Positions 3,333 to 47,602 of a DNA stretch of 64,000 bases are shown here, one piece after another. The stretch lies in contig OZ253504.1 of assembly GCA_965262235.1 (NCBI GenBank), forward strand, positions 3,361,684-3,425,683, in the 5' to 3' direction. Origin of the DNA: Dehalococcoidia bacterium. Lineage in GTDB: Bacteria > Chloroflexota > Dehalococcoidia > Bin125. A program made the position numbers and the translations under genes. The stretch's first letter is position 1. Every line of letters begins with the position of its first letter. Under the pieces are notes generated by a model, which ran no database searches, was not told the DNA's origin, and saw only the letters and a list, made by a program, of their open reading frames with translations.

Positions 3333-3627
3333 CGGCGAGCCTGCTCAGTTTGGTGAGCCAGCGGCGGCCGCGGGGCAGGAAGACGGTCGATTGGACGGCG
3401 GCGACCCAATCGGCATCGCTGCCGGCGGTCAGCCGGACGCGGGCTTCGCCGGTTTCGAGCGAGCAGTCGGCGGACTCGACGCCGGGGAGCTCGGCCAGGG
3501 CCGACTGGACACGGCCCGCGCAGATGCCGCAGACGAGGCCGTCCACGGCGAGGTGGACTTCGGAATCGGAGGCGCTGAGGATGCGCGCCTCGGGGGTGAT
3601 CAGCAGGTTCTTCGGTCGCAGTTTCAC
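3325..3627 (-). CDS. Heavy-metal-associated (HMA) domain protein, a copper-chaperone-like protein.
   Basis: LAVDGLVCGICAGRVQSALAELPGV matches the HMA MxCxxC metal-binding loop (here C-G-I-C) within a ferredoxin-like fold. The exact start is uncertain. It overlaps the nfo start by 8 bp. Confidence 0.45.
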   Translation of the reverse strand: MKLRPKNLLITPEARILSASDSEVHLAVDGLVCGICAGRVQSALAELPGVESADCSLETGEARVRLTAGSDADWVAAVQSTVFLPRGRRWLTKLSRLAGA

Positions 3628-3652
3628 TGCGGATCTCCAGTCATGCGCCGGG

Positions 3653-5113
3653 TCATGCGCCGGTCGGCTGCGCCGGCCAGCCGAGCCAGTCGAGGTAGCG
3701 GCGGACCGCGGTCGCGCAGGATTCGATCGACTGGTAGCAGGCGACGCCGGCCTCGTTGAGGGAGCGCTGGAGCTTGATGCCTTTCTCGAAGCCCTCGACG
3801 CTGTTGGGCTCGCGGATCACCACGGCGATCGGGCGGCTGAGCTTGGGGGCGAGCTTGCCGATCCGGTCCGCGAACTGCTCTTCGAAGCCGTCGCGGTCGC
3901 GCCGGCTGTTTCCGCGGAAAGCCATATCCATCCCCGTGTGGACCATCATCCAGTCGATCGATTCGTCTTCGGCGACGGCGGTCAGCGCGGCCTCGACGCC
4001 TTCGCCCTCGAACATGAAGCCGGCGTCGAGCGGGTTGCGCACCGAGGTGCCGGCGATCGGAGTGAATTTGCTGAGCCGCTGCTGGGTGGTCTTGCTGAAC
4101 CAGGGGACGGGGATGCCGGCGCGGTCGCAGATGTCGGCGGCGAGCACCGAAACGCCGCCGCCGCCGCCGAGCACCGCAGCGCGCGGGCCCGCGAGGTGGG
4201 GCATTCGCTGGACGGTGACCGCGAGGTCGAGCAGCTCGTCGACGCTCTCGGCGCGCATGAAGCCGGCCTGACGCTGGACGGCGTTCCAGATCTGGGCGGA
4301 GCCGGCGAGCGAGCCGGTGTGTGAGCTGGCGGCTCGCGAGCCGGCCTCGGTCAGGCCGCCCTTGAGCACTGCGAGTGGTCGCTTGCCGGCCATCGAGCGG
4401 GCGACGCGCAGGAAGCGAGGGCCGTCGCGGATGCCCTCGATGTAGGCGAGCACGATGTCGGTGTCGGGATCGTTGGCGAGGAACTGGAGATAGTCGGCCT
4501 CGTTGAGGTCGGAGGCGTTGCCGAACGAGGCGACGTTGGAGAACTCAATCCCGCGGCGCGGGCCGTGGCCGAGCGCCTCGCTGGCGTTCATCCCGCTCTG
4601 CGAGAGCATGGCGACGCGGCCGGGGGTGGGGGAGGCGGAGTCGCTGAAGGAGACGCCGCCGCGGGTCGAGTGGATGCCCAGGCAGTTGGGGCCGATCAGG
4701 CGGATGCCGCCAGCGTCGAGGCGCTTGAGCACCTCGCGCTCGAGCTCGGTGCGTTGCTCGTCGCCGGTTTCAGAGAAGCCGGCCGTGAAGAGGTGGATGA
4801 CGCGCACGCCCTTGGCTACGCAGTCATCCACGAGGCTCAGGATCGCCGAGGCGGGCACGGAGGAGATGACGTAGTCAACCTCGCCCGGCGCCTCAACCAG
4901 CGAGCGGTAGATCGGCGTGCCGTCCTGCAGCTTGCCGCCCTTCGGGTTGATGCAGTAGACGTGTTCGAGCCGGTCGAGGTTGCGGATGCCGCGCAGGAAG
5001 GACTGTCCGCCGCCCCAGCCGACGTTGGAGGCTGAGACGCCGGCGATAGCCACCGAGCGCGGCGCGAAGGCGACGCCGAGGGCGTCCTGTCCGTCGCGTT
5101 CACGGGCGGTCAT
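3653..5113 (-). CDS. CoA-binding-domain protein of the NDP-forming acyl-CoA synthetase type (acetyl-CoA synthetase, ADP-forming alpha-domain family).
   Basis: MTARERDGQDALGVAFAPRSVAIAGVSAS...GPNCLGI...SQSG... has the CoA-binding and succinyl-CoA-synthetase-like flavodoxin domains. The start is taken at the ATG giving MTAR (5113); the ORF extends further upstream without homology. Confidence 0.7.
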   Translation of the reverse strand: MTARERDGQDALGVAFAPRSVAIAGVSASNVGWGGGQSFLRGIRNLDRLEHVYCINPKGGKLQDGTPIYRSLVEAPGEVDYVISSVPASAILSLVDDCVAKGVRVIHLFTAGFSETGDEQRTELEREVLKRLDAGGIRLIGPNCLGIHSTRGGVSFSDSASPTPGRVAMLSQSGMNASEALGHGPRRGIEFSNVASFGNASDLNEADYLQFLANDPDTDIVLAYIEGIRDGPRFLRVARSMAGKRPLAVLKGGLTEAGSRAASSHTGSLAGSAQIWNAVQRQAGFMRAESVDELLDLAVTVQRMPHLAGPRAAVLGGGGGVSVLAADICDRAGIPVPWFSKTTQQRLSKFTPIAGTSVRNPLDAGFMFEGEGVEAALTAVAEDESIDWMMVHTGMDMAFRGNSRRDRDGFEEQFADRIGKLAPKLSRPIAVVIREPNSVEGFEKGIKLQRSLNEAGVACYQSIESCATAVRRYLDWLGWPAQPTGA

Positions 5114-5214
5114 CCGGTCTGTCGTGTTGCCCGGCAGGTCGGTCAAGAGCGCGCAGCCTTCCCCGGCGCGAGCCGCGCTCGCGCAGCGCCAGCGTAGCAA
5201 GCGTCGTGCTGAAG

Positions 5215-6609: not shown

Positions 6610-8001
6610 TCACAGCGGGGGGCGCTGCCAGCCGCCGAGGGCGGATTCGAGGGCGGCGGCGAGGGCGAGGCAGATGTCCTCGCGCCACGGCTTGGCGAGG
6701 ATCTGGACGCCGATTGGCAGGCCCTCGGCCGAGGTTCCGCAGCGCACCACCGCGCCGGGCCAGCCGGTGATGTTGTACGGGCCGGTGTAGAACATGGTGC
6801 GATTGTCGCCCTCGTAGGTCGCGCCGTGGGTGGGCGCGGGCTGCGAGGCGACGGGCGCGACGACGGCGTCGTAGTCCTGGACCCAGCCGAGCATCTCGCT
6901 GCGGAACTGGTCCTGGGCTTCGAGCGCCGCGGTGTACTCGGCGGTGGTAGTGGGCTCGGTTCGCGCGAAGCCCTTCTCGATGAAGGGGGAGACCTCGGTG
7001 GTGCCCCACTTCTCCAGCATGCGGTCGACCCAGGCGCGGCCGTCGCCCCCGCCGACGCGGGCCCAGAGGTCGACGTACTTGCTGATTGGGGGCGGCGCGT
7101 CCTGCTCAACCGACTGCACGAGCTCGGCGAGGGCGGTGACGGCCGCGGAGAGCGTGGCCTGGGTGTCGTCGGTGGCGCGCTGGTAGCCGTCGACGTCGGA
7201 GTAGTAGGCGATGCGCAGACCGCTGATGTCGACATCGGCGGGGTCGCCGAGCGGCACCGGGAAGATTGCAGGGTCGACACCGTCGGGGCCGGAGATGATC
7301 GGCAGGGCGAGGACGAGGTCCTCGACGTAGCGGGCCATCGGACCGATCGTGGTCCAGGCGTCGAGCGCGCCCATGCCCCAGGGGACGATGTGCCCGGTGC
7401 GGGGGACACGGCCGGCGGTCGGCTTGATGCCGGCGATGCCGCTGAAGTGGGAGGGCAGGCGGATGCTGCCGCCGGTGTCGCTGCCCATGTCGAGCGGGGA
7501 GCCGCCGGCGCAGATGATCGCGCCCGCGCCGCCGCTCGAGCCGCCGGGGGTGCGGGTGAGGTCGAACGGGTTGCGCGTCTGGCCGTAGACGAGGTTGTCG
7601 GTCTCGCCGGAGAGGGTCAGCTCGGGGGTGTTGGTCTTGCCCATCAGGATCGCGCCGGCGCCGCGCAGGCGGGCTGTCACGGTCGAGTCGGCCTCGGGCA
7701 CGAAATCTTTGCGGCCGAGCGTGCCGCCGGTGCTGATGACGCCGGCGGTGTCGTGCGAGTCCTTGAGCGTGATCGGGACGCCGTGGAGCGGGCCGAGCTC
7801 GTCGCCGCGGGCGATCGCGGCGTCGGCGGCTGCGGCCTCTTCGCGGGCGCGCTCGGCGCAGAGTTGGACGACTGCATTGAGGTCGCCGTTGACCTCGTCA
7901 ATGCGGGCCAGATGGGCTTCGAGCACCTCGGAGGAGGAGACCTCCCCGGCGCGGATCGCATCCGCGATGGTGACAAGCGAGGAATAGGTGAGGTCGTCCA
8001 T
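6610..8001 (-). CDS. Amidase (amidase-signature family), paralog 2.
   Basis: Same AS signature (GKTNTPELTLSGE...GGSSGGAGAIICAG...GSDTGGSIRLPS). It is 463 aa, in tandem and in the same frame as paralog 1, separated by 3 nt. Confidence 0.85.
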   Translation of the reverse strand: MDDLTYSSLVTIADAIRAGEVSSSEVLEAHLARIDEVNGDLNAVVQLCAERAREEAAAADAAIARGDELGPLHGVPITLKDSHDTAGVISTGGTLGRKDFVPEADSTVTARLRGAGAILMGKTNTPELTLSGETDNLVYGQTRNPFDLTRTPGGSSGGAGAIICAGGSPLDMGSDTGGSIRLPSHFSGIAGIKPTAGRVPRTGHIVPWGMGALDAWTTIGPMARYVEDLVLALPIISGPDGVDPAIFPVPLGDPADVDISGLRIAYYSDVDGYQRATDDTQATLSAAVTALAELVQSVEQDAPPPISKYVDLWARVGGGDGRAWVDRMLEKWGTTEVSPFIEKGFARTEPTTTAEYTAALEAQDQFRSEMLGWVQDYDAVVAPVASQPAPTHGATYEGDNRTMFYTGPYNITGWPGAVVRCGTSAEGLPIGVQILAKPWREDICLALAAALESALGGWQRPPL

Positions 8002-10968: not shown

Positions 10969-11208
10969 TCGAGGTCCCCTTCGGATTTGAATACTGCCCG
11001 GTACGGCGGATACCTGGGAACGTTAGACCTATGTGCATCCGACATGCAGCACGCAAGCGCGGGGTGCTTGGGCGATCGGGTGGCGCCACGGCGTGGCGGT
11101 GACGGCAGAAGAACGATCGGCGCCGGCGACTGTCAGGCGTCGATTGTGCGGGCGATCGATCGGGAGCGGCGCCGCCGGTGGCGAACTCCTACTGGCGTGG
11201 GTTCGGGT

Positions 11209-11502
11209 TTAGCGGCGCGGCGCGTCTGAGCCACCGGCGACGGCGGGGACGATGCTGACTTCGTCGCCGTCGCCGATCGCAGTGGCCATGCCCTCGAGGA
11301 AGCGGATGTCCTCGCCGTTGACGAAGACGTTGACGAAGCGGCGCAGCTCGCCGCCGTCGTCGACGAGACGCTCGCCCATCCCGGGGTACTGGCGCTCGAG
11401 CTCGACGACGAGGTCGCCGAGCGATCCGGGTGCCCCGTCCACCACATCCTGGTCGCCGGTGAGGCCGCGCAGCGGCGTCGGGATTCGCACAACGATGCTC
11501 AT
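11209..11502 (-). CDS. MoaD/ThiS/CysO-family ubiquitin-like sulfur carrier protein with a C-terminal extension after Gly-Gly.
   Basis: 97 aa with a beta-grasp-like sequence ending ...VSIVPAVAGGSDAPRR. The GG is followed by 6 extra residues. Confidence 0.55.
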   Translation of the reverse strand: MSIVVRIPTPLRGLTGDQDVVDGAPGSLGDLVVELERQYPGMGERLVDDGGELRRFVNVFVNGEDIRFLEGMATAIGDGDEVSIVPAVAGGSDAPRR

Positions 11503-11632
11503 CTGGCCCAGCTCAACTCTCCGCGTCTGGCTGCGTCTGTCTCGTGCCGTCCTGTGCCCGCCCTGTTGAGGCGCTCCAGCGAGCCTATCGCGTCGCTGGG
11601 TTTAGGCGGGGTTTAGGCGGGGTTTGGGCGGG

Positions 11633-11899
11633 CTACGCCTCGTCCTTGGGATCGTCGGCCTCCCAGAGTTCCTGGCAGACGTGACAGACGAGGGCTGAGA
11701 TGACCTCAGTGCCCTCTTCGACCATCTCGTATTCAAGCTCGCACTCCTGGCCGCACTCGGGGCAGAGCGGGCGGAGGGCGTAGTCGAACTCGCCGCTGGT
11801 CAGGGAGCTGCGGTGCAGCAGCGTGTCGATATCGACCCACTCCTCGAAGGGGAGGGTGTGGACCTTGTAGCTGGCGAGGTCTCCGGGGGTGGCGCTCAC
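11633..11899 (-). CDS. Small Zn-ribbon protein (four-Cys).
   Basis: CPECG...CHVC pairs within an 88-aa acidic protein. No homology could be assigned from memory. Confidence 0.4.
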   Translation of the reverse strand: MSATPGDLASYKVHTLPFEEWVDIDTLLHRSSLTSGEFDYALRPLCPECGQECELEYEMVEEGTEVISALVCHVCQELWEADDPKDEA

Positions 11900-11948
11900 T
11901 GCGGCAGTCTATCGCGCGGCTGCGCGAGCGCAGTCGGGCGGCGCCGGG

Positions 11949-12212
11949 CTAGCGATGGCGGGCACGGTGGCCGCGCATCGAGCTGAGCGCCTGTTCGATG
12001 TCGCTCTCGCTGCTCTCGGAGACGGGCTCGTGGCCGCGCCGACCGCGGCCGCCGAAGATGTCTGAATTGTTGGTCCGCTCGAGATCGGGGAATGAGTTCG
12101 CGAAGCGGCGGCACTCGCCGCACTTCTGGCATTCGCCGGGGCTCGTGGACCCGTTCGGTGTGGCGAGCACCCAGTTATGCGCGCAGTGTCCCTCGGAGAC
12201 TTGCGTAACCAT
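11949..12212 (-). CDS. Small Cys-rich hypothetical protein.
   Basis: HCAHNW...CQKCGEC cluster in an 87-aa protein with a basic C-terminus. Confidence 0.35.
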   Translation of the reverse strand: MVTQVSEGHCAHNWVLATPNGSTSPGECQKCGECRRFANSFPDLERTNNSDIFGGRGRRGHEPVSESSESDIEQALSSMRGHRARHR

Positions 12213-12376
12213 GGGTCGACTCCCGGAGGAGCCCGTGCGCCGCCACGGCGCTAAGCGGTCCAGCTCTGTATAGCTGCAGAACGGTCGCTGCGCGGGTTAT
12301 TGTCGAGCACCGGCCGAGCGGTTGCAACGTTCTTTACAGCGTGTTTACCGGGTGTCTAGTGGATGCCTGGCGACAT

Positions 12377-12844
12377 CTACGACGCGGCTTCAGCGAGCGC
12401 CTGGACGTGTTTGAGCGAATCTTCGGCGTGCAGCGCGAAGTCGCGCGGGGCGTCGACGATGTGGCGGACGATGCCTTCGGCGTCGATCACGTAGGTCGTG
12501 CGGGCGGTGATCCCACGCTCTTCATTGAAGATGCCCCAGACCTTGCCGGTGCGGGCGAAGGGGAAGTCGCCGAGCAGCGGGAAGCTGAGGCCGAGCTCGC
12601 GTGCGTAGGCTCCGGCGGCGAAGGGTGAATCGACACTGACGCCCAGGACCTGGGCTCCAGCCGCCTCGAACTCGTCATGGAGTTCCTGGAAGCGGCTCAG
12701 TTCGTTCGTTCAACCACCGGTGAAGGCGAGCACGTACCAGGCGACGACGACGGTCCGGCCGCGGTACTCGCTGAGCTGATGCTCGCGGCGGTCGCCGTCC
12801 ATCAGCGTGAAATCGGGGGCCTGTTGTCCAACTTCCACGGCCAT
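12377..12844 (-). CDS. AhpE/Bcp-like 1-Cys peroxiredoxin with an in-frame TGA (candidate selenocysteine) at the peroxidatic position.
   Basis: I translated the whole frame by hand. It reads MAVEVGQQAPDFTLMDGD...VVVAWYVLAFTGG-[TGA at 12710-12712]-TNELSRFQELHDEFEAAGAQVLGVSVDSPFAAGAYARELGLSFPLLGDFPFARTGKVWGIFNEERGITARTTYVIDAEGIVRHIVDAPRDFALHAEDSLKHVQALAEAAS-TAG (12377). LAFTGG-U-TNEL aligns residue-for-residue with the AhpE motif LAFTGI-C-QGEL. The peroxiredoxin fold continues for 110 codons after the TGA with no frameshift. Confidence 0.65.
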
Positions 12845-39098: not shown

Positions 39099-39139
39099 GC
39101 GGCCGCATCGCAAGGTCACCAGTGGTCGCCTGCGGAAGC

Positions 39140-39200
39140 TCTGAATAACTCTCCCCCCGCCATGCGGGGGGAGAGGGGATCCGACTTGTTTAGAGGATTC
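39140..39200. repeat. Palindromic repeat element.
   Basis: CTCTCCCCCCGCCATGCGGGGGGAGAGGGGATCCGACTTGTTTAGAGGATTCC. Confidence 0.7.
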
Positions 39201-39291
39201 CCAAGCTCGCCCACCAACGCTCTGCATCCTGAGCACGCTTCATGACCGTGAGTCTATGAACGGCGACCCCACTCCCACATACACTCCGTGA

Positions 39292-39825
39292 ATGGCGACG
39301 ACATCACGAGCCAAGGCGAAGCGCAATGCGCGGGCCGCGCGGCGCGCGGAACAGACCGACCCCGAGCGGGCGAACAACCGCGTGCTCGCGCGCAACCGCC
39401 GCGCGACCTGGCAATACGAGATCACGCAGCGGATCGAGGCCGGGATCGAGCTGCGCGGCAGCGAGATCAAATCGCTGCGCATGGGCCGCGGCTCGATCGC
39501 TGAGGCCTACTGCCGCCCGCGCGGCGGACAGCTGTGGCTGATCGGCGCGCACATCGCGCGCTACGAGCCGGCCGGCGAGCAGAACCACGAGCTGACCCGC
39601 GACCGTCGGCTGCTGGTCCATCGCCGTGAAATCCACCAGCTGGAGGCGGCGTTCGAGCAGCGCCGGCTGACCCTGGTGCCGCTGCGCCTGTACCTGAAGC
39701 ACGGCCTCGTCAAGCTGGAGATCGGCGTGGCCCGCGGCAAGCGCGAGCACGAGAAGCGCCAGCGCATTCGCGAGCGCGAGACCAACCGCGAAATCGCCCG
39801 CGTCCTCCGCCAAAACAACGTCTGA
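39292..39825 (+). CDS. smpB: SsrA-binding protein SmpB.
   Basis: ...NRVLARNRRATWQYEITQRIEAGIELRGSEIKSLR...LLVHRREI...LKHGLVKLEIGVARGKREHEKR is canonical SmpB with a basic N-terminal extension. Confidence 0.85.
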   Translation: MATTSRAKAKRNARAARRAEQTDPERANNRVLARNRRATWQYEITQRIEAGIELRGSEIKSLRMGRGSIAEAYCRPRGGQLWLIGAHIARYEPAGEQNHELTRDRRLLVHRREIHQLEAAFEQRRLTLVPLRLYLKHGLVKLEIGVARGKREHEKRQRIRERETNREIARVLRQNNV

Positions 39826-39837
39826 GCCGCGCTGGCG

Positions 39838-40030
39838 GCCCGCAGTCCGCGCATGCCGACACGGGCCGCGTCAAGCGTCGCACGGTCGTCGATCCCGCGA
39901 CGCCCGAGGACGTGGATGCGATGCGGAATCTGATCGAGGGCACCGACATATTCTCGCAGGCGTGCAGCGCGGAGAGTCTCGCGCGCCACGGGGCAGACAC
40001 GCTAGAGTTCACAGAACTTCCCTCAGGAGC
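39838..40030 (+). pseudogene. Fragment of a family III CoA-transferase paralog (internal ~60 codons only).
   Basis: PQSAHADTGRVKRRTVVDPATPEDVDAMRNLIEGTDIFSQACSAESLARHG is clearly homologous to QSAQADTGHGKRRAFVDLETPEGVDAMWHLIEGADVFSQSYRAESLARRG of the intact gene at 43126-44562. No start codon and no flanking domains. Confidence 0.5.
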
Positions 40031-40036
40031 GGCCTC

Positions 40037-41194
40037 ATGGCGAGTCCAGCCACACATGCCACACGTGGCGAAGAACCATCGTTCACCCCCGAGTTCCTGC
40101 CCGTTGGGGAGCTTCACCTTGACGGTAAGAATCCGCGCATCCAGCAGGTCGGAGTGGACCTCGACCAGGAGCGCATTCTCAAGATCCTTTGGGAGGAGTA
40201 CTCCGTAGACGAAGTGGCGCTGTCCATTGCGCAAAACGGCTTCTTCCCTCACGAGCCCTTGTTCGCCATCGAGGAGGGTGGCAGGCTCGTGGTCGTAGAG
40301 GGCAATCGCAGGCTCGCGGCTGTCCGATTACTCCGTGAGCCCGACCTCCGGGAACGCCTTCGTGGAGAAGCGTTGCCCACGATATCCGTAGAAGCGATCG
40401 CCAAGCTCGACTTCGTTCCTGTCATCCGCTGCAAGCGCGAAGGGATTTGGCAATACATCGGCTTCAAGCACGTGAACGGACCACAGGCATGGACATCCCT
40501 TGCCAAAGCCGAGTACGTCGCTTGGGTGAAGAACGAAATCGGCACTTCTCTTGAGGACATCGCCCGCACCATCGGTGACTACCACTCGACAGTCACGCGG
40601 CTATACCGAGCATACATGGCCCTGAAGCAGGCAGAAGATGAGGGCGTCTACGATCGCAAGTGGCGGACTCGGAAACACTTCTCATTCTCACACCTCTACA
40701 CCGGCCTGGACTACCAAGGCATACGGGATTTCACCCGTATCGCCGATCTCGACCCGCCCAAGGCGAGGCCGATCCCCAAGAGCAGACTCAAGGAGTTTGG
40801 TGAGCTGTGCGTCTGGCTGTGGGGGGACACGACACATAACACAGTTCCTCTAATCAAGAGCCAGAATCCCGACCTCCGCGATCTTGATGGAGCCCTCCAG
40901 AAGAAGGCCGGGCTAAGTGCTCTCCGCGCTGGCTATGGCATCTCTGTCGCGGTCGATATCGCCCGTGGCGACACCGCACTCTTCCGGGAGGCGTTGCTCA
41001 AGTCAAAGCAGTCGCTCCAGAATGCCCGCGCGAAGGTAGCAACTGGATTTGAGGGCGAAAAGGATTTGTCAAGGGAGATGGAAGAAATCCTCGTCATCGC
41101 CGATGCCCTTGACGACGACATGCGGACGATCGCGATAGACCCCCTACAGAGGCAGCGAGATAGGCGACGACGCCGGAGAGCCCAGAGGACATAG
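40037..41194 (+). CDS. ParB/Srx-fold (ParB-like nuclease domain, DUF262-like) protein.
   Basis: N-terminal ...LHLDGKNPRIQ...GRLVVVEGNRRLAAVRLL matches the ParB N-terminal domain motif. SD-like AGGAGC sits 7 nt upstream of the ATG. This is the first gene of a low-GC three-gene block. Confidence 0.55.
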   Translation: MASPATHATRGEEPSFTPEFLPVGELHLDGKNPRIQQVGVDLDQERILKILWEEYSVDEVALSIAQNGFFPHEPLFAIEEGGRLVVVEGNRRLAAVRLLREPDLRERLRGEALPTISVEAIAKLDFVPVIRCKREGIWQYIGFKHVNGPQAWTSLAKAEYVAWVKNEIGTSLEDIARTIGDYHSTVTRLYRAYMALKQAEDEGVYDRKWRTRKHFSFSHLYTGLDYQGIRDFTRIADLDPPKARPIPKSRLKEFGELCVWLWGDTTHNTVPLIKSQNPDLRDLDGALQKKAGLSALRAGYGISVAVDIARGDTALFREALLKSKQSLQNARAKVATGFEGEKDLSREMEEILVIADALDDDMRTIAIDPLQRQRDRRRRRRAQRT

Positions 41195-41200
41195 CGGCGG

Positions 41201-42181
41201 ATGGTAGGTCTCATCGTTCCGCCGGCGTCCGCCGACGCAACGGAACACGCTGACTGGCTTGAGTTGACGGCGGCGGTCACATCTGACGCCACTCGTTCAA
41301 GGCAGCATCTAATCGCAGCGATCCGAAGAACGGGCTCAATCGATGGGACTCCCTCCACCGAGGACCTAGACGATGAACCGCTTGATGAGCTGGTTGAGCG
41401 GGAGGATGAAGAGCTTGAGGGAATCGCCGACGCCGCCTTCGAACAACTGGCGAGGCGCGAGAGCTACCTCGGCGCGCACTACCCGTTTGCCGTTGGCGGG
41501 ACGGTGCAAGCCAAGGATGGTGCTCTGGCCTCGCCCTATCTCTTCCTGACGGCGCTGACGAAGTTCAACCCGACGCTGAGGGCATCGGAAGAGAGCGGCG
41601 CCTCGCTCTTTGAACGCGTTAGCAGGACTGCTCTGGTGGAATACCTCGGCGGCGTAGAAACCGTGCGCTCCTACGACTTTGGGTTTCCCCGACGCGACGG
41701 CCCGAAGGCGTTCTACGATGCTCTTGAGGCTCTGTGCCAGCAAATGGGTGAGGGGCTTGGCTGCAAGGTGAAAAGGCCCAAGACAGCCAGCGTCAAGGAC
41801 GCGAAGCTTGACCTCGTGGCATGGCTACCGTTCGAGGATGGCCGTGACAATCAACTTAGCGTATTCGGACAGTGTGCAGCGGGGATGGACTGGTCTGAGA
41901 AGGTCAATGAGCTTCAGCCAGTTGACTTTTGCCGCATATGGTTGAAGGAATCCCCGGCGATGAGTCCCCTTCTCGCTTTCTTCGTGCCCCGGCAGGTTGA
42001 GGAACGCCGCTGGTTTCAGGTTAGCGTTGGGGAGCGACGCATTTTCTTCGACCGGCTCAGGATCGCCCGCTTTCTCGGCAGGCTCGACAAGGACCTCGCC
42101 AAGCGCTGCGAGTCGTGGACGGCGGCAGCTATCGCAGTGGGTGACGCGGCCGGCGCCCCCGTTGCTGACGCGACATCCTAG
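41201..42181 (+). CDS. Hypothetical protein, middle gene of the island.
   Basis: 326 aa, tightly coupled between the ParB-like and Dam genes. The N-terminus is acidic. I recognise no motif with confidence. Confidence 0.4.
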   Translation: MVGLIVPPASADATEHADWLELTAAVTSDATRSRQHLIAAIRRTGSIDGTPSTEDLDDEPLDELVEREDEELEGIADAAFEQLARRESYLGAHYPFAVGGTVQAKDGALASPYLFLTALTKFNPTLRASEESGASLFERVSRTALVEYLGGVETVRSYDFGFPRRDGPKAFYDALEALCQQMGEGLGCKVKRPKTASVKDAKLDLVAWLPFEDGRDNQLSVFGQCAAGMDWSEKVNELQPVDFCRIWLKESPAMSPLLAFFVPRQVEERRWFQVSVGERRIFFDRLRIARFLGRLDKDLAKRCESWTAAAIAVGDAAGAPVADATS

Positions 42182-42183
42182 GC

Positions 42184-43038
42184 ATGAGGTTCGCGAGCCC
42201 GCTTCGCTACCCAGGCGGGAAGGCAGCCATGACGGGCATCCTGCGCACCATCAGGACCTTAAACGGCTTCAACGGTCATGCTGTGGCCGAACCGTTCGCG
42301 GGTGGGGCTGGTGCCGCGCTTACGCTTCTCTATTCTCGGGAGACGCATAAGGTACACATAAACGATCTCGATCCCGCCATCCACGCCTTTTGGTTCTCGG
42401 CGGTTCACGACAGCGAGGCGTTGCTTAATCTCCTCGATCAGACGCCGGTGTCCGTCGAGGAGTGGAAGCGTTGGAGGGATGTCTACCGAAGTGGCCGCGC
42501 CTCGCCTCTTGAACTGGGGTTTGCCACTTTCTACCTCAACCGCTGCAATCGGTCAGGAATCATTCAGAACGGCGGCGTCATAGGTGGGATCGAGCAGAGG
42601 GGGCGTTGGAAAATCGATGCCCGGTTCAACAAGCTTGCCTTGAGGCAGCGGCTTGAACGAATCGCGGAGGAGTGCGACCGAATAGCGGTGTCGAACCTTG
42701 ATGGCATCGACTTCATCGACACGTTAGATGCGGAATCGACGCTCTACTTTGTGGACCCGCCCTACTTCAGAAAAGGGCCCCTGTTGTATCTGAATAGTCT
42801 TAGTGATGACTATCACTCCAGTCTCGCTGAGAAGCTCCAGAGCATTGAGGAAGCGGCATGGGTTCTGACCTACGACGACTGTTCTGAGATCCGCGAGCTG
42901 TATGGAGAGTGGGCGGCGATTCATCCTTTCTCGCTTCGCTACTCGGCACGTGAGCGGCAGCAGGGACGGGAGGTCTTGATCACGCCTCGGTGGATGCACT
43001 TGCCAGAGGCCGTGAGTGAGGCTGCGGTGAGCTGGTGA
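42184..43038 (+). CDS. DNA adenine methyltransferase (Dam/D12-class N6-adenine MTase).
   Basis: N-terminal LRYPGGK (AdoMet motif I), Glu/Asp motif II, and catalytic DPPY (FVDPPYF) motif IV in Dam order. Its ATG immediately follows the upstream stop. Confidence 0.8.
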   Translation: MRFASPLRYPGGKAAMTGILRTIRTLNGFNGHAVAEPFAGGAGAALTLLYSRETHKVHINDLDPAIHAFWFSAVHDSEALLNLLDQTPVSVEEWKRWRDVYRSGRASPLELGFATFYLNRCNRSGIIQNGGVIGGIEQRGRWKIDARFNKLALRQRLERIAEECDRIAVSNLDGIDFIDTLDAESTLYFVDPPYFRKGPLLYLNSLSDDYHSSLAEKLQSIEEAAWVLTYDDCSEIRELYGEWAAIHPFSLRYSARERQQGREVLITPRWMHLPEAVSEAAVSW

Positions 43039-43125
43039 GCCGCGCTGGCGGCGCGCTCGCGGAGTTCCAGTGGCTGGGCGACCAGGCCGAAGCCCGGCAT
43101 CGGGCATGACTTATCTTCGGCTGAT

Positions 43126-44562
43126 GTGACGGTTCGGGACACGTTTGGACCCCTCATGCAGCGCGCCGACCTTGAAGCGATTTCGGAAGCCGCCGGGGTG
43201 CCGGCGACGACCACCCCGATCGAGTTCACGGGGCCCGACGATCCGACCTACCCCTCGCCGCTGCGGCTGGGCGAGGGGACGGCGGCGCTGCTCGCGAACG
43301 TCGCCGGCGCAGTCAGCGACATCACAGCCGCGACCGGCGGAACGCCGCAGTCGGCGCAGATCGATGTCGGCCATGCGCTCGTCTCGATCTCCAGCATGTG
43401 GGTGCTGCGGGTCAACGGCGTGCTCGCGGGCGAGGCGCTGGCCGACGAGATGGCCCCCGGCCAGGGCATCTTCCCGACCCGCGACGGCCGGCATCTCTAT
43501 CTGCTCAGCGGCTTCGCGCACATCGTTGAGCGGACGCTCGAGGCGATCGGCTGCCATGACGTGACGCGCCTCGCCGAGCACGTCGCGGAGCGCGACTCCG
43601 CCGAGCTTGAGGCGGCGCTGGTCGAGGCGCAGCTGACCGGCGTCGTGCTGCGCGACGCGGAGCAGTGGTCAGCCCACCCACAGGGGCGGCTGCTCGCGCA
43701 GTCGCCGGCGGTGCGGGTCGAGCGGATCGGCGACGCCCCGCCCACGCCGCTGCCGGAGGGCGCGCAACCGCTCGCAGGACTGCGCGTGCTCGATTCGACG
43801 CGCGTGCTGGCCGGGCCGACGATCTCGCGCACGCTCGCCGGTCTCGGCGCCGATGTCCTGCACGTCGGCTCGCCGCACGTGCCCGACCTGCAGTCCGCGC
43901 AGGCCGACACGGGCCACGGCAAGCGTCGCGCGTTCGTCGATCTGGAGACGCCCGAGGGCGTGGACGCGATGTGGCACCTGATCGAGGGCGCCGACGTGTT
44001 CTCGCAGTCGTACCGCGCGGAGAGTCTGGCGCGGCGCGGGCTGGGCCTCGAGGCGGTGGCGGCGCGGCGGCCGGGCATCATCTATGTCTCCGAGAACGCC
44101 TACGGCCAATCGGGGCCGTGGCGCGAGAAGCGCGGCTTCGACGGCAACGTGCAGGCCGCCAGCGGGATCGCAGCGCTGCACCAGCGGTCCGACCAGTTCG
44201 CGCCGGCGGGCCCGGCGATGGCGATGAACGACTACTGCACGGGCTACTGGGGCGCGTACGGCGTGCTGGAAGCGCTCAAGCGCCGCGCGACCGAGGGCGG
44301 CTCGTGGCACGTGACGGTCTCGCTCGGCCAGACCGCGGCCTGGTTCCTGCGGATGGGCACGCCGCACGAGATCGGCGCGGATCATCCCGCGCGCGATCCG
44401 GAGATCGGCTATCGGCTGGCCGCGCAGTTCTCGGAGGATGTCGAGTCGGACTACGGGACGCTGACGCGTCTGAAGTTCCCGATCAGCTTTTCCGACACCG
44501 AGCCCGCCTGGTCGCGCACCGTCAAGCCCGGCGCCCACGCCCCGGAGTGGCTGCCGCGCTAA
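43126..44562 (+). CDS. CoA-transferase family III (CaiB/BaiF-like) domain protein with a ~200-aa N-terminal extension.
   Basis: LAGLRVLDSTRVLAGPTISRTLAGLGADVLHV..ESLARRGLG...GFD are family III CoA-transferase motifs starting near residue 205. Confidence 0.7.
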   Translation: MTVRDTFGPLMQRADLEAISEAAGVPATTTPIEFTGPDDPTYPSPLRLGEGTAALLANVAGAVSDITAATGGTPQSAQIDVGHALVSISSMWVLRVNGVLAGEALADEMAPGQGIFPTRDGRHLYLLSGFAHIVERTLEAIGCHDVTRLAEHVAERDSAELEAALVEAQLTGVVLRDAEQWSAHPQGRLLAQSPAVRVERIGDAPPTPLPEGAQPLAGLRVLDSTRVLAGPTISRTLAGLGADVLHVGSPHVPDLQSAQADTGHGKRRAFVDLETPEGVDAMWHLIEGADVFSQSYRAESLARRGLGLEAVAARRPGIIYVSENAYGQSGPWREKRGFDGNVQAASGIAALHQRSDQFAPAGPAMAMNDYCTGYWGAYGVLEALKRRATEGGSWHVTVSLGQTAAWFLRMGTPHEIGADHPARDPEIGYRLAAQFSEDVESDYGTLTRLKFPISFSDTEPAWSRTVKPGAHAPEWLPR

Positions 44563-44732
44563 CCCGTGCCCCTCGGTCGGTGTCCTGCGACCTGCTCGAC
44601 GAGCTGTTCGCCGCCGTGAATCTGAAAGCGAGCTGAGCAACGCTCGGGCCTGAGCGCGATGCCCGGTCCGGCCGCGCGATGCTGGGATTCGGATAGGATG
44701 GCGCTGCGCAACGATGCGCGAAGACAACACGT

Positions 44733-45091
44733 GGGGACGAAAGGGATCGACAGCGGCCGACTGATCTGTGGCTGCGCGCCGAGGTGGCGTTCCTCGCTAA
44801 TCCGCGCCAACCTTTCCTTAACTGGCGAAACCAAGGAATTCGCACTCGCCGCTTAACCGCGGCGACGTCGCCTCCCGACTGCCGCCGAACCGGTGGGAGT
44901 GCGGCGCCATCAGTTTGGCCGCTCGCCGCGGGATGACGGGACCGCAGCGCTAAGACCATTCCGGATCACCTGGTCGTAACGGCTGGCCGACGCGCCGGCG
45001 ACCGGGGAAAACTTAAGCGACGGCTACGCGCGTAGAGGCTGCGGGGAGCGACCGACTGGACGGGGAGTTCGATTCTCCCCCGTCTCCACCA
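44733..45091 (+). ncRNA. ssrA: tmRNA (ssrA).
   Basis: 5' GGGGACGAAAGGGATCGACAGCGG... The 3' tRNA-like end is GGACGGGGAGTTCGATTCTCCCCCGTCTCCACCA, giving T-arm GGGAG/CTCCC and acceptor 5'-GGGGACG pairing 3'-CGTCTCC, then ACCA. The internal tag ORF ends ...GETKEFALAA-TAA (44854-44856), the canonical ...ALAA degradation tag. Confidence 0.7.
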
Positions 45092-45142
45092 CCACACCAT
45101 CCAGACGCGCCCTGCGCGTCGCCGGATCCGGGGAGCGCAGCG

Positions 45143-45580
45143 ATGGCCGACCCCGCTCCGCTGGTGCTGCCGCGCGGCGTGCTGCCACCCGCGCGGCCGG
45201 CCCCGCCGCCCTCGGGCGCGCCGTTCGATCGCCGCTTCTTCGAGGCCGTCCTGCCCGGCGCGGTCAGCGCCTACTGCACCCAGGTCGCCTGCACGATTCC
45301 GCTCGTGCAACTGTTCACCTCCGACGGGGCGCGCCACTACATCCGCGCGATCTCGGCCGTGTCCGACAGCTGGGTGGCGCTGCATACGCAGGCCGAGAAG
45401 AACGAGCAGCCGATTCAGGTCTTCATCCCCTACCCGGCGATCATGCGGGTCGAGATTCATCCCGATCTGAGCCCCGAGCTGCGCCGCTTCGGCTTCCTCA
45501 CGGCGACCTCCGAGCTGAGCCCGCACGAGCTGGCCGCAGCGGCGCAAGCGGCCGCGGCCGACACTGCTACGCACGGCTGA
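45143..45580 (+). CDS. Hypothetical protein.
   Basis: 145-aa ORF with typical codon bias and a Pro/Ala-rich N-terminus. No motif recognised. Confidence 0.4.
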   Translation: MADPAPLVLPRGVLPPARPAPPPSGAPFDRRFFEAVLPGAVSAYCTQVACTIPLVQLFTSDGARHYIRAISAVSDSWVALHTQAEKNEQPIQVFIPYPAIMRVEIHPDLSPELRRFGFLTATSELSPHELAAAAQAAAADTATHG

Positions 45581-45709
45581 ACTATTCGCCAACTCGCGGA
45601 TGACTCTATCGACGCACTTGGGTAGGCTGCGTCAATCAGCCGCGTGCGCGTGAGCCACGCCAGCCGCGGCATACCCAGCGGGCGACAGCCCAACAGGAGG
45701 ATCAGACCC

Positions 45710-47602
45710 ATGCAAGAGCGAAACTACTGGAGTCGAATGCGGCGACAGCGACTCTCACGCCGCACCCTGCTGGGCGCCTCCGCACGCGTCGGCGTCGGCG
45801 CCGCCGGGCTCGCCCTGGTCGGCTGTGGTGACGACGACGACGACGGCCAGCAGGCCGCCGCCCAGGTTCAGCAGGCCCGCCAACAGTCCGCCGCCGAGCA
45901 GCCGTCCGCCGCCGAGCAACAGGCCCAGCAGGCCAGTCAGCAGGCGGGATCCACGCCAGCGCAGGACCAGGACTCGCCGGCAGCCGTCGCGGACGCCGGC
46001 GGGATCAAGACGGGCGGCATCTGGGACACCACCTACGTCGGTCTGTCCTCGGCCAACCCGCCGACGCTCGACCCGATGGCGAACCTGAGCTACCTGTCGC
46101 AGATTCCCTCCGGCTATCACTACAGCCGGCTGCTCAAGTACATCCGCGGCGACGAGGGCGTCGATCCGCTCAACTACGGCGAGTACGAAGGCGACGCGTC
46201 CTCGAGCTTGCCCGAGATCCCCGACGCGACGACTTACATCTACACGATCCGCGAGGGCATGACCTGGCACGACGTCGACCCGATGAACGGTCGCGACCTG
46301 ACCGTGGACGACGTGCTCTACACGCAGGACCGCTTCCTCTCGCTGGCCGACTCGAACGGCAACGCGCAGTCCTGGTCGGGCGTCGTCAGCTCCTTCGAGG
46401 GCGTTGAGGACCGGCAGATCAAGATCGGCCTGCACCGCCCCTACGCGCCCTTCCTGAACTTCTCTGCGTCGCCCTCACACCTCTGGATCATCCCCCGTGA
46501 GATCGTCGAGGACGGCACGGTCGAGTCGCGCCCGGTCGGCTCCGGCCCCTGGATCTTCGACACCTATGAGCCGGACGTGCGGCTGGTCTGGAAGCGCAAC
46601 CCCAACTGGTACGAGCCGGAGTGGAACGGCGCCAAGCCACCGTTCGCGGACGGCATCCAGGCCTCGCTGATCAACGACCCCAACGTGATCATCCCCAACC
46701 TGGCTTCGGGAGCCATCGATCTCTCGCTGCTGGACCCCTCGATCTACGGTCGGCTGACCGAGGAAGTGCCCGACGCCACCTACCGCTTCAACCAGAGCAC
46801 GGTGCCCAACGGCTTCGGCTTCAACTTCTCGATCGAGCCCTGGAACGACATCCGGATGCGCCAGGCGCTGTCGCTGTCGCTGGACCGCCAGGCGATCCTC
46901 GAGGCGGTCGACGACACCAAGCAGGGCGCCTGGCAGACGGCGCTCTCGCCGCTCGCCCCGTTCTATCTCGATCCGCGCGACAAGGAAGGGTTCGGCGAAA
47001 ACGTCGAGTACTTCCACCGCGACCTGCAGCGGGCTCACGAGCTGATGGACGCCGCCGGCTACCCGGACGGCATCGATGTCGTGGTGCACGGCAACTCCGA
47101 CCGCTACGGACCGGCCTGGGTCAACTACATGGAAACCGTGATGGTCTCCGCGGCCGAACTCGGGATTCGCTACTCCTTCCAGTTCACCGAGTACGCCGCC
47201 TACATCGCGACCGCCTTCCGCGGCGACTTCGACGAGGGCATCTTGCTCGGACCGTTCATCGTCCCGGTCGAGCCCGACGACATCCTGTTCACCGTCTACC
47301 ACCCCGACAGCGGGCGTCACAACTGGGGCGCCGGCCCCGGCGACCCGGCCTCCGACCCGACCTTCGTCGCGATGCTCGACGCGCAGCGCGCCGAGGTTGA
47401 CGCGGAGGCGCGGCTCAACCTGATCCACGACATCCAGCGCTACATGGCCGAGAAGATGTACATCATCCCGACGCCGCGCGGCGCCAGCGTCTACGGCTTC
47501 AACCCCAACGTGCGGCACTTCGACAACGAGGTGCCCTGGCACAAGGGCGGTTACGCCTGGGGCACCGAGTTCATGCCGTACATCTGGGACGCCGACGCCT
47601 AG
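45710..47602 (+). CDS. ABC transporter substrate-binding protein, family 5 (peptide/nickel, DppA/OppA-like), a Tat-signal lipoprotein.
   Basis: Twin-arginine SRRTLLGASA, lipobox LALVGCG, Gln-rich linker, then a family-5 SBP domain. Confidence 0.8.
   Translation: MQERNYWSRMRRQRLSRRTLLGASARVGVGAAGLALVGCGDDDDDGQQAAAQVQQARQQSAAEQPSAAEQQAQQASQQAGSTPAQDQDSPAAVADAGGIKTGGIWDTTYVGLSSANPPTLDPMANLSYLSQIPSGYHYSRLLKYIRGDEGVDPLNYGEYEGDASSSLPEIPDATTYIYTIREGMTWHDVDPMNGRDLTVDDVLYTQDRFLSLADSNGNAQSWSGVVSSFEGVEDRQIKIGLHRPYAPFLNFSASPSHLWIIPREIVEDGTVESRPVGSGPWIFDTYEPDVRLVWKRNPNWYEPEWNGAKPPFADGIQASLINDPNVIIPNLASGAIDLSLLDPSIYGRLTEEVPDATYRFNQSTVPNGFGFNFSIEPWNDIRMRQALSLSLDRQAILEAVDDTKQGAWQTALSPLAPFYLDPRDKEGFGENVEYFHRDLQRAHELMDAAGYPDGIDVVVHGNSDRYGPAWVNYMETVMVSAAELGIRYSFQFTEYAAYIATAFRGDFDEGILLGPFIVPVEPDDILFTVYHPDSGRHNWGAGPGDPASDPTFVAMLDAQRAEVDAEARLNLIHDIQRYMAEKMYIIPTPRGASVYGFNPNVRHFDNEVPWHKGGYAWGTEFMPYIWDADA

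Follow-up and report, generated by a model that had tools for sequence, protein, structure and literature searches.

The smpB and ssrA genes of a Dehalococcoidia bacterium (Chloroflexota; contig OZ253504.1, positions 3,361,684 to 3,425,683, a stretch of 64,000 nt referred to here as the window) are separated by a low-GC island and a family-III CoA-transferase gene (CoAT). Comparison with the same locus in related genomes shows that the island is a presence/absence polymorphism, carried by only some strains of a Chloroflexota population, that it was inserted once, and that it is bracketed by a short duplication of its target. The event behind it was probably the entry of a compact foreign cassette with a putative defense function into the spacer directly after the smpB stop codon, by illegitimate, microhomology-mediated joining with partial duplication of the target, after which the occupied allele would have been kept as a polymorphism subject to recombination.

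By its CoAT homologs, the organism belongs to a Chloroflexota (Dehalococcoidia/Tepidiformaceae-like) lineage; looking up the exact CoAT and SmpB sequences of the window returned no record. To compare alleles at this locus, genomic context was taken from metagenome contigs encoding the closest CoAT homologs, giving eight relatives (L001–L006, L010, and L041) and a more distant outgroup (L011), whose CoAT is 78% identical at the amino acid level. In L001 (a 3.24-Mb contig), L003, and L010, smpB is followed by a spacer of ~118 nt, CoAT, the tmRNA gene, and a 145-amino-acid (aa) open reading frame (ORF), and the outgroup is likewise empty, with smpB, a 22-nt spacer, CoAT, and tmRNA. L002 is also free of the cassette and carries a different insert, such that a truncated smpB 3′ end lies behind another gene and is followed by CoAT and tmRNA. 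The remaining four relatives (L004, L005, L006, and L041) hold the occupied allele, with the same three genes as the window between smpB and CoAT. Because all of the close relatives and L011 show CoAT between smpB and ssrA, smpB–CoAT–ssrA is the native gene order of the clade, and because the outgroup lacks the cassette, the empty allele is the ancestral state. An earlier, sequence-only reading of the window had described smpB and ssrA as split by the island together with an intact CoAT paralog. The insertion of the island stands, but the island alone does not separate the two genes, which are not adjacent in any relative compared, and “paralogous” is a misnomer for the intact CoAT, the resident ortholog found here in every relative. 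That reading had also held that relatives with the same spacing and a second intact CoAT would speak against a recent insertion; here the picture is mixed, some relatives sharing the spacing by way of the same island and others having no island. Between smpB and ssrA, L001, L002, L003, L010, and L011 have just one CoAT, and a second intact copy was found there in no relative examined, nor in the outgroup.

The basic gene assignments of the sequence-only reading were borne out. In the window, where all features described here lie on the forward (+) strand, smpB (39292..39825; Pfam SmpB, 1.2e-51, residues 33–173 of 177), CoAT (43126..44562; Pfam CoA_transf_3, 1.2e-53), and ssrA (44733..45091; ARAGORN; Rfam RF00023, 126.8 bits, model positions 1–374) are all still intact despite the island. 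The block between smpB and CoAT does have low GC (0.596 vs 0.68–0.70 in the flanks), with a drop across 39900–43050 from about 0.70 to 0.54–0.63, and the GC content at third codon positions (GC3) of its three ORFs is about 0.70, compared with 0.90–0.91 for smpB, PhyH, and CoAT. At the nucleotide level, the smpB of the window is 94–98% identical to that of the relatives, and its CoAT is 94.6–96.7% identical to the CoAT of L001–L005 and L041.

The boundaries of the insertion are marked by a direct repeat of target sequence, TGAGCCGCGCTGGCGGC, whose left copy (TGAGCCGCGCTGGCGGCCCGC, 39823..39843) and right copy (TGAGCCGCGCTGGCGGCGCGC, 43036..43056) are exact over 17/17 nt and match at 20/21 over 21 nt. 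Both copies open with a stop codon, the left with that of smpB (TGA, 39823–39825) and the right with that of the methylase gene at the end of the cassette, and behind the right copy comes the 69-nt region that natively precedes CoAT. The exact 17-mer is present at only these two sites in the window, and the repeat is single copy after smpB in the empty alleles compared (L001 and L003; BLAST and multiple alignment A2). Aligned by BLAST, window positions 39193–39839 correspond to L001 9250–9896 and positions 43036–46579 to L001 9880–13428, so that the two flank alignments overlap in L001 by exactly the 17 nt of the repeat, as they do in L003. Occupied and empty alleles thus differ by an insertion of 3,196 nt with a target duplication of 17–21 nt, a repeat that the sequence-only reading, which suggested a check for att-like direct repeats, had overlooked. 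The left and right junctions are identical in the window, L004, L005, L006, and L041 (alignments A1 and A2), and the same CoAT fragment is found in each; because the carriers share cassette, fragment, and junctions, the occupied allele has a single origin. Neither inverted terminal repeats nor any other repeats of note were found flanking the island, and no tmRNA-derived repeat was found in the window.

The insert contains, right behind the left repeat, a 157-nt dead copy of part of CoAT (39836..39992). It aligns ungapped to 43884–44040 at 133/157 nt (85%, E=1e-42) and is a copy of CoAT nt 759–915 (codons ~253–305) in direct orientation, from a source ~860 nt downstream of the insertion point. 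The fragment reported by the sequence-only reading at 39838–40030 is therefore real, but its homology ends at 39992, and 39993–40036 is the cassette's own upstream region; the ~70% aa identity over 50 residues given there agrees with the 68% measured. That the fragment is not itself a target-site duplication, since it copies an internal piece of CoAT, also holds; the insert as a whole, with the fragment in it, is bracketed by a target duplication of 17–21 nt. In nucleotides, the fragment is 81–86% identical to the clade's CoATs and 68–71% to that of L011, with the clade's CoATs 79–81% identical to L011; in amino acids it is 66–70% identical to the clade's own CoATs vs ≤59% for the next group. 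Because the best matches at both levels are the clade's own genes, the fragment comes from the CoAT of this lineage and not from a distant donor.

The substitutions in the fragment give no hint of a functional past. Its 24 differences from the resident CoAT fall on the three codon positions as 8:9:7, compared with 8:2:23 between functional orthologs. With L011 as the outgroup, 14 fixed differences between fragment and CoAT can be polarized, 11 of them on the fragment branch (4:5:2) and 3 on the CoAT stem (1:0:2), and polymorphism is spread as 9:11:6 among the five fragment copies vs 2:1:13 among eight CoAT alleles. Because the differences fall evenly on codon positions, with no trace of purifying selection, the fragment looks to have been nonfunctional from birth and to have decayed neutrally since, though only 157 nt stand behind this test and its power is limited. 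The two copies of the repeat are ~20% diverged in L004–L006, similar to the fragment and compared with the 20/21 identity seen in the window, and this similarity fits a common age of repeat and fragment. Two possible roles for the fragment were considered and rejected: it cannot be an antisense regulator of CoAT, as both run in one direction, nor a conserved functional element, as it is more polymorphic than CoAT, at all codon positions.

Each of the three junctions, read from reconstructed consensus sequences (target, CoAT, and cassette ends), shows ~3 nt of microhomology: TGC where the target joins CoAT nt 759, GGG where CoAT nt 915 joins the cassette, and TGA where the cassette stop codon joins the target. 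From this scar, we infer a single insertion into the spacer right after the smpB stop codon, in an ancestor or a sister lineage of the population, in which the joining would have been illegitimate and microhomology mediated, with no site-specific recombinase involved. Part of the target would have been duplicated, leaving as survivors the 21-nt sequence from the smpB stop and the 157-nt CoAT piece, both to the left of the cassette. Two routes could lead to this arrangement. In the first, a one-step template switch, a strand would have copied the chromosome, then CoAT nt 759–915, then the foreign cassette, and returned 21 nt upstream of its exit point. In the second, insertion with a target duplication of ~1 kb (from the smpB stop to CoAT nt 915) would have been followed by a deletion of ~850 nt in the truncated left copy, possibly through illegitimate recombination, facilitated by homology, of sister-lineage DNA. 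The CoAT piece would have been dead from birth and left to neutral decay, with the occupied allele persisting beside the empty one and undergoing shuffling by homologous recombination.

This scar can be compared with the products of microhomology-mediated template switching (microhomology-mediated break-induced replication/fork stalling and template switching, MMBIR/FoSTeS) and, in transformable bacteria, of homology-facilitated illegitimate recombination. The locus shares with MMBIR/FoSTeS a multijunction product with overlaps of 2–3 nt, a short templated copy of nearby sequence in direct orientation, and a short duplication at the return point, although here the mechanism is read from the scar alone, and transformability of the host and its use of such a pathway are putative.

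The nearest documented phenomenon is the insertion of restriction-modification (RM) units with long target duplication (Nobusato et al. 2000; PMC2853133). RM units inserted with target duplication and without mobility genes are documented, and in many cases the repeats reach into a gene's 3′ end (PMC2853133). The criteria of Furuta, Abe & Kobayashi 2010 (PMC2853133) are homologs of both modification (M) and restriction (R) genes, a length of <20 kb, no mobility genes, a target that is single copy in an insert-free relative, and a duplication of >30 bp. Like these units, the island is a small insert of foreign composition with a methylase and a putative nuclease and no integrase or transposase (3.2 kb, three ORFs), its repeat is single copy in island-free relatives and overlaps the 3′ end of the upstream gene, and the insertion is polymorphic within a species-level group. 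The M gene is clear (D12/Dam), while the R gene is suggested by fold only, through weak Foldseek matches (E=1.2e-3, TMq 0.30). Unlike in those units, the repeat is contiguous over just 17 exact nt, or over 21 nt with 20/21 identity, and a duplication above 30 bp would require both the 21-mer and the 157-nt piece of CoAT to be remnants of a single one of ~1 kb. The duplication here is also interrupted, with the 21-mer joined to a CoAT piece from ~860 nt downstream, which implies template switching or a later deletion of ~850 nt.

Several observations weigh against this explanation. Only nine relatives were available, mostly from a few European Nucleotide Archive (ENA) assemblies, and assembly errors are possible in details such as the split gene 2 of L004. 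Some empty alleles could in principle stem from deletion between the repeats and not from ancestry. Microhomologies of 3 nt are weak evidence in 70%-GC DNA, all the more as the ancestral junctions were reconstructed from diverged copies, and a contiguous repeat of only 17–21 nt is a length that site-specific att cores can have, short of the >30 bp of a long target duplication. No intermediate allele with a longer left copy of CoAT was found among the sampled relatives, so the two routes are inseparable on present data. Finally, three states of the outgroup survive in the fragment but in none of the eight CoAT alleles sampled. These three changes on the CoAT stem imply that the copy is either older than the common ancestor of those alleles or derived from a sister lineage outside the sample, which would complicate a simple origin in situ.

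Divergence across the locus bears on both the age of the insertion and its possible source. While the flanks are 93–98% identical among all nine genomes, the island genes are 88–97% identical among carriers (differing by 3–12%). On the left flank, in a distance matrix of smpB only, carrier alleles cluster (2.1–4.5% apart vs 4.7–6.4% to empty alleles), with the exception of L005, whose smpB (7256–7789) is recombinant, its 5′ half close to the empty L001 and L003 (3.4–3.7%) and its 3′ half close to the carriers (0.7–1.5%). On the right flank, CoAT alleles are unsorted by occupancy, with distances of 2.4–5.6% overall and 4–12% at third positions, and no extra divergence between occupied and empty alleles was found. 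Farther downstream, across 45143–47600 (the 145-aa ORF and an SBP_bac_5 gene), there are two haplotypes, ~75% identical, that do not track the island. Taken together, the divergence among carriers, the decay of the repeat, the clustering of smpB, the unsorted CoAT alleles, and these haplotypes indicate one insertion, old relative to the sampled diversity and kept as a presence/absence polymorphism in a recombining population. Of the downstream haplotypes, which lie right next to the highly conserved tmRNA, one (95% identical) is common to the window, L002, and L004, and the other to L001, L003, L005, and L041; on the other side of smpB the PhyH–smpB spacer (39099–39291 in the window and its equivalents in L001–L041) varies from about 113 to 665 nt despite the 93–98% identity of the genomes.

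The distinct smpB haplotype that carriers share beside the insert, next to a fully shuffled CoAT side, leaves some room for introgression, in which the occupied allele would have been built in an unsampled sister species and then brought into the population when smpB and CoAT recombined homologously, the fragment being a piece of that species' CoAT and not a copy of the resident gene. Such an entry would account for ancestral states in the fragment that are absent from all sampled CoAT alleles, and recombination at the locus is evident from the breakpoint in the L005 smpB and from the ~75%-identical downstream haplotypes. Nevertheless, no candidate donor lineage was found, the nearest nonsyntenic cassette being only 75% identical; the excess divergence of the fragment is explained as well by neutral decay over about twice the coalescence time of the alleles; and the same illegitimate event would still be required in the donor. 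We regard introgression as possible, though clearly not the favored account, and as a modification of the proposed single insertion with which it is compatible. If the second of the two routes above involved sister-lineage DNA, this too would explain both the linked smpB haplotype and the ancestral states of the fragment.

Integrases often target the 3′ ends of genes, and the smpB/ssrA neighborhood is a classic site for islands. With a 17-nt exact direct repeat that starts exactly at a gene's stop codon, the locus could be read as a product of site-specific integration, in which the 21-mer would be an att core at the smpB 3′ end, the cassette what is left of an integrative element, or its satellite, with a recombinase that has been lost or acts in trans, and the CoAT piece a passenger from an earlier imprecise excision. 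The island does share with integrase islands at ssrA and tRNA genes its neighborhood, a short direct repeat, lower GC, and defense cargo. Here, however, ssrA is intact and lies 1.7 kb from the right repeat, beyond CoAT, and the repeat consists of intergenic sequence and the smpB stop codon. No integrase or transposase family match was found among the three ORFs of the insert, and no recombinase within about 8–10 kb of it in any of the five carriers; the insert holds only what lies between a promoter-like motif and a stop codon, exactly, and overlaps by 3 nt at either end. Around distant copies of the cassette the flanks are unrelated, and neither the 21-mer nor the CoAT fragment was found near them; even where the cassette sits among mobile genes (L007–L009), it shares no end sequences with the island.

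The different insert in L002 cuts both ways. Its contig starts inside an OLD-family nuclease gene (3–1532; Pfam AAA_21, AAA_15, and OLD-like TOPRIM; PADLOC Old, 6e-20). The gene stops 12 nt before a sequence that matches only the last ~180 nt of smpB (1545–1731), which is followed by the 21-mer and CoAT. A different defense-type gene has thus been inserted within 180 nt of the cassette site, which hints that the smpB locus may be a hotspot and, for site-specific integration, that it has been hit repeatedly, but the junction lies inside smpB, at about codon 119, and not at the 21-mer, so that the two inserts have no common site. On balance, site-specific integration seems unlikely.

Least probable of all is the model of the sequence-only reading, in which two full CoAT paralogs once stood in tandem and the arriving island deleted most of the older, upstream one: a divergence of 15–20% between fragment and intact CoAT (vs 2.4–5.6% among CoAT alleles) and three ancestral states that would make the fragment older than the common ancestor of those alleles speak for it, but a second CoAT is absent from the locus in all relatives and the outgroup, the fragment is part of the insert, empty alleles match occupied ones precisely at the repeat (so that the boundary of the duplication would need to coincide exactly with the cassette stop codon), the even codon-position spread (8:9:7, and 4:5:2 for changes fixed on the fragment branch) gives no sign of a period of purifying selection, and the fragment is nearer to the clade's CoAT than to that of L011, so that the duplication would have to post-date that split.

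The cassette whose single insertion we propose begins with an upstream region (39993..40036) that holds a promoter-like motif, ACGCTAGAGT, and a ribosome-binding site, AGGAG. Gene 1 (40037..41194, 385 aa) encodes a protein with a predicted ParB/Noc/KorB-like fold, comprising a nucleotide-binding-type domain as in the ParB N terminus and a helical DNA-binding region (AlphaFold predicted local distance difference test [pLDDT] 85; Foldseek matches to ParB, Noc, and KorB, with E from 5e-6 to 1e-4). It matches phrog_3694, a family of unknown function, over its full length (8e-68), its GNRR motif is invariant, and about 3,200 homologs were found at E≤1e-10 among 8,000 candidates scored. Gene 2 (41201..42181, 326 aa) has no match to a Pfam, NCBIfam, or PADLOC family and matches phrog_14650, also of unknown function, at 2e-24. 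Its model (pLDDT 88.5) has a restriction-endonuclease-like (PD-(D/E)xK) fold, with MspJI as the best, though weak, Foldseek match (E=1.2e-3, prob 1.0, TMq 0.30), followed by AspBHI, Ecl18kI, and EcoT38I, and on this structural basis the product is probably a nuclease effector. Gene 3 (42184..43038, 284 aa) encodes a Dam-type (D12 class) N6-adenine DNA methyltransferase with a DPPY motif (Pfam MethyltransfD12, 1.7e-10; PADLOC MTase_II, 7e-76).

These genes have a wide distribution outside the smpB locus. The gene 1–gene 2 pair is kept in 28 of 29 distant loci from many phyla (the 29th being a truncated match), about half of which also have a Dam-like gene beside the pair, and none of the 29 is near smpB or CoAT. 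Copies of the cassette occur in Chloroflexota, Acidimicrobiia, Planctomycetota, Binatia, and Bacteroidota, with a GC content below that of the surroundings in each distant host examined, and it is this occurrence in many phyla, together with GC and GC3 below those of the host, that marks the cassette as foreign. Between the window and the 75%-identical copy of L007, homology runs from about 39993, near a GCGCTAnAnT motif, to the methylase stop (TGGTGA), with unrelated flanks on either side. The stop codon, TGA, is native to the cassette, as L007 and L012 also end in ...TGGTGA. At the other end, (T)GCGCTAnAnT lies ~30–40 nt upstream of the gene 1 start in the window (40000–40012), in L007, and in L012–L015, which belong to other phyla, and could be a −10-type promoter element that the cassette brings along. 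This assignment follows from conservation across phyla only; a sigma-70 and terminator scan of the island returned no promoter and nothing above chance. An exact search of Joint Genome Institute (JGI) metagenomes for the upstream pattern gave no match, and neither did a scan of viral contigs with gene 1. In L007/L008 (ERZ25071132, 4493–15518) and L009, the 75%-identical cassette sits in a mobile-element-rich region with a KAP NTPase and a large serine recombinase, joined in L009 by DDE transposases, and in other genomes the cassette may travel with such a region.

Among described defense systems, the cassette most resembles PD-λ-5 (Vassallo et al. 2022, PMC9519451), a compact RM-like module. 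Gene 3 resembles PD-Lambda-5_B (PDLC04018; 6e-97, residues 2–278, profile positions 3–280 of 291), and gene 1 resembles PD-Lambda-5_A over its N-terminal ~160 residues only (residues 21–177, profile positions 14–173 of 473, 1.7e-20). In contrast, a true A protein, taken here as one of ~430–500 aa adjacent to B, matches its profile end to end, as does the 439-aa protein of Paracoccus phage Pkon1 (2e-147, residues 13–436, positions 7–425 of 428). By BLASTP, the Pkon1 protein aligns with only the first ~170 residues of gene 1, at 30% identity, and gene 2 is unrelated to A (hhalign probability 1%). PD-λ-5 is moreover a two-gene system, whereas the cassette has a third gene between the A-like gene and the methylase. 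Because gene 1 matches the true A protein only N-terminally and gene 2 not at all, we classify the cassette, from these profile comparisons, as a three-gene relative of PD-λ-5 and not as a member. The defense function is suggested by these homologies and predicted folds. We tentatively raise the possibility that the ParB-like and nuclease-fold pair, usually with a Dam-type methylase, could constitute a distinct, uncharacterized RM-like immune system, far from PD-λ-5 and spread over many phyla, that moves as a bare promoter-to-stop cassette, through template switching or illegitimate recombination and without a recombinase, with the smpB–ssrA neighborhood serving as a defense hotspot in this Chloroflexota population.

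A few further features of the resident genes deserve mention. Within the tmRNA of the window, positions 44824–44856 encode GETKEFALAA*, which on its translation is most likely the tag reading frame; the 25-residue tag reported by ARAGORN, AATSPPDCRRTGGSAAPSVWPLAAG, is implausible and was dropped in its favor. ARAGORN gives GETKEFALAA for the near-identical tmRNA of L001 and GEPKELALAA for that of L011, and a 25-residue tag also for L002–L005. Some gene calls in the relatives are irregular: gene 2 is split into ORFs of 189 and 145 aa in L004 (9165–10144), and CoAT is called with extended C termini in L003 (567 aa, 3452–5155) and L005 (560 aa, 11120–12802) and with a truncated 5′ end in L010 (8001–9113). 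These calls are either real frameshifts or assembly errors. A CoAT scan of JGI metagenomes recovered only relatives at ≤73% identity, with neither smpB nor tmRNA in the flanks retrieved (up to 6 kb on each side). In five distant marine-metagenome relatives (L045 and L047–L050), where the fetched flanks likewise hold no smpB or tmRNA, the CoAT homolog adjoins a convergent second CoAT paralog that is ~41% identical to the query.

In conclusion, no new principle is at work in this locus, which is an ordinary defense-cassette island polymorphism near smpB/ssrA with an unusually readable scar, and its cargo is a poorly characterized variant of RM/PD-λ-5 systems. For annotation, the lesson is that insertion may itself leave a piece of a gene next to an island, which then need not be the remains of an old paralog. 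The cargo is a candidate defense system, widespread by its homologs, in which two of the three proteins have no annotated family. Here, a defense cassette appears to have been gained without a mobility gene, with empty and occupied alleles, an outgroup, and a readable scar all at hand, and such a scar, a short target duplication joined to a templated or duplicated piece of a neighboring gene, is rarely so well polarized in uncultured bacteria.

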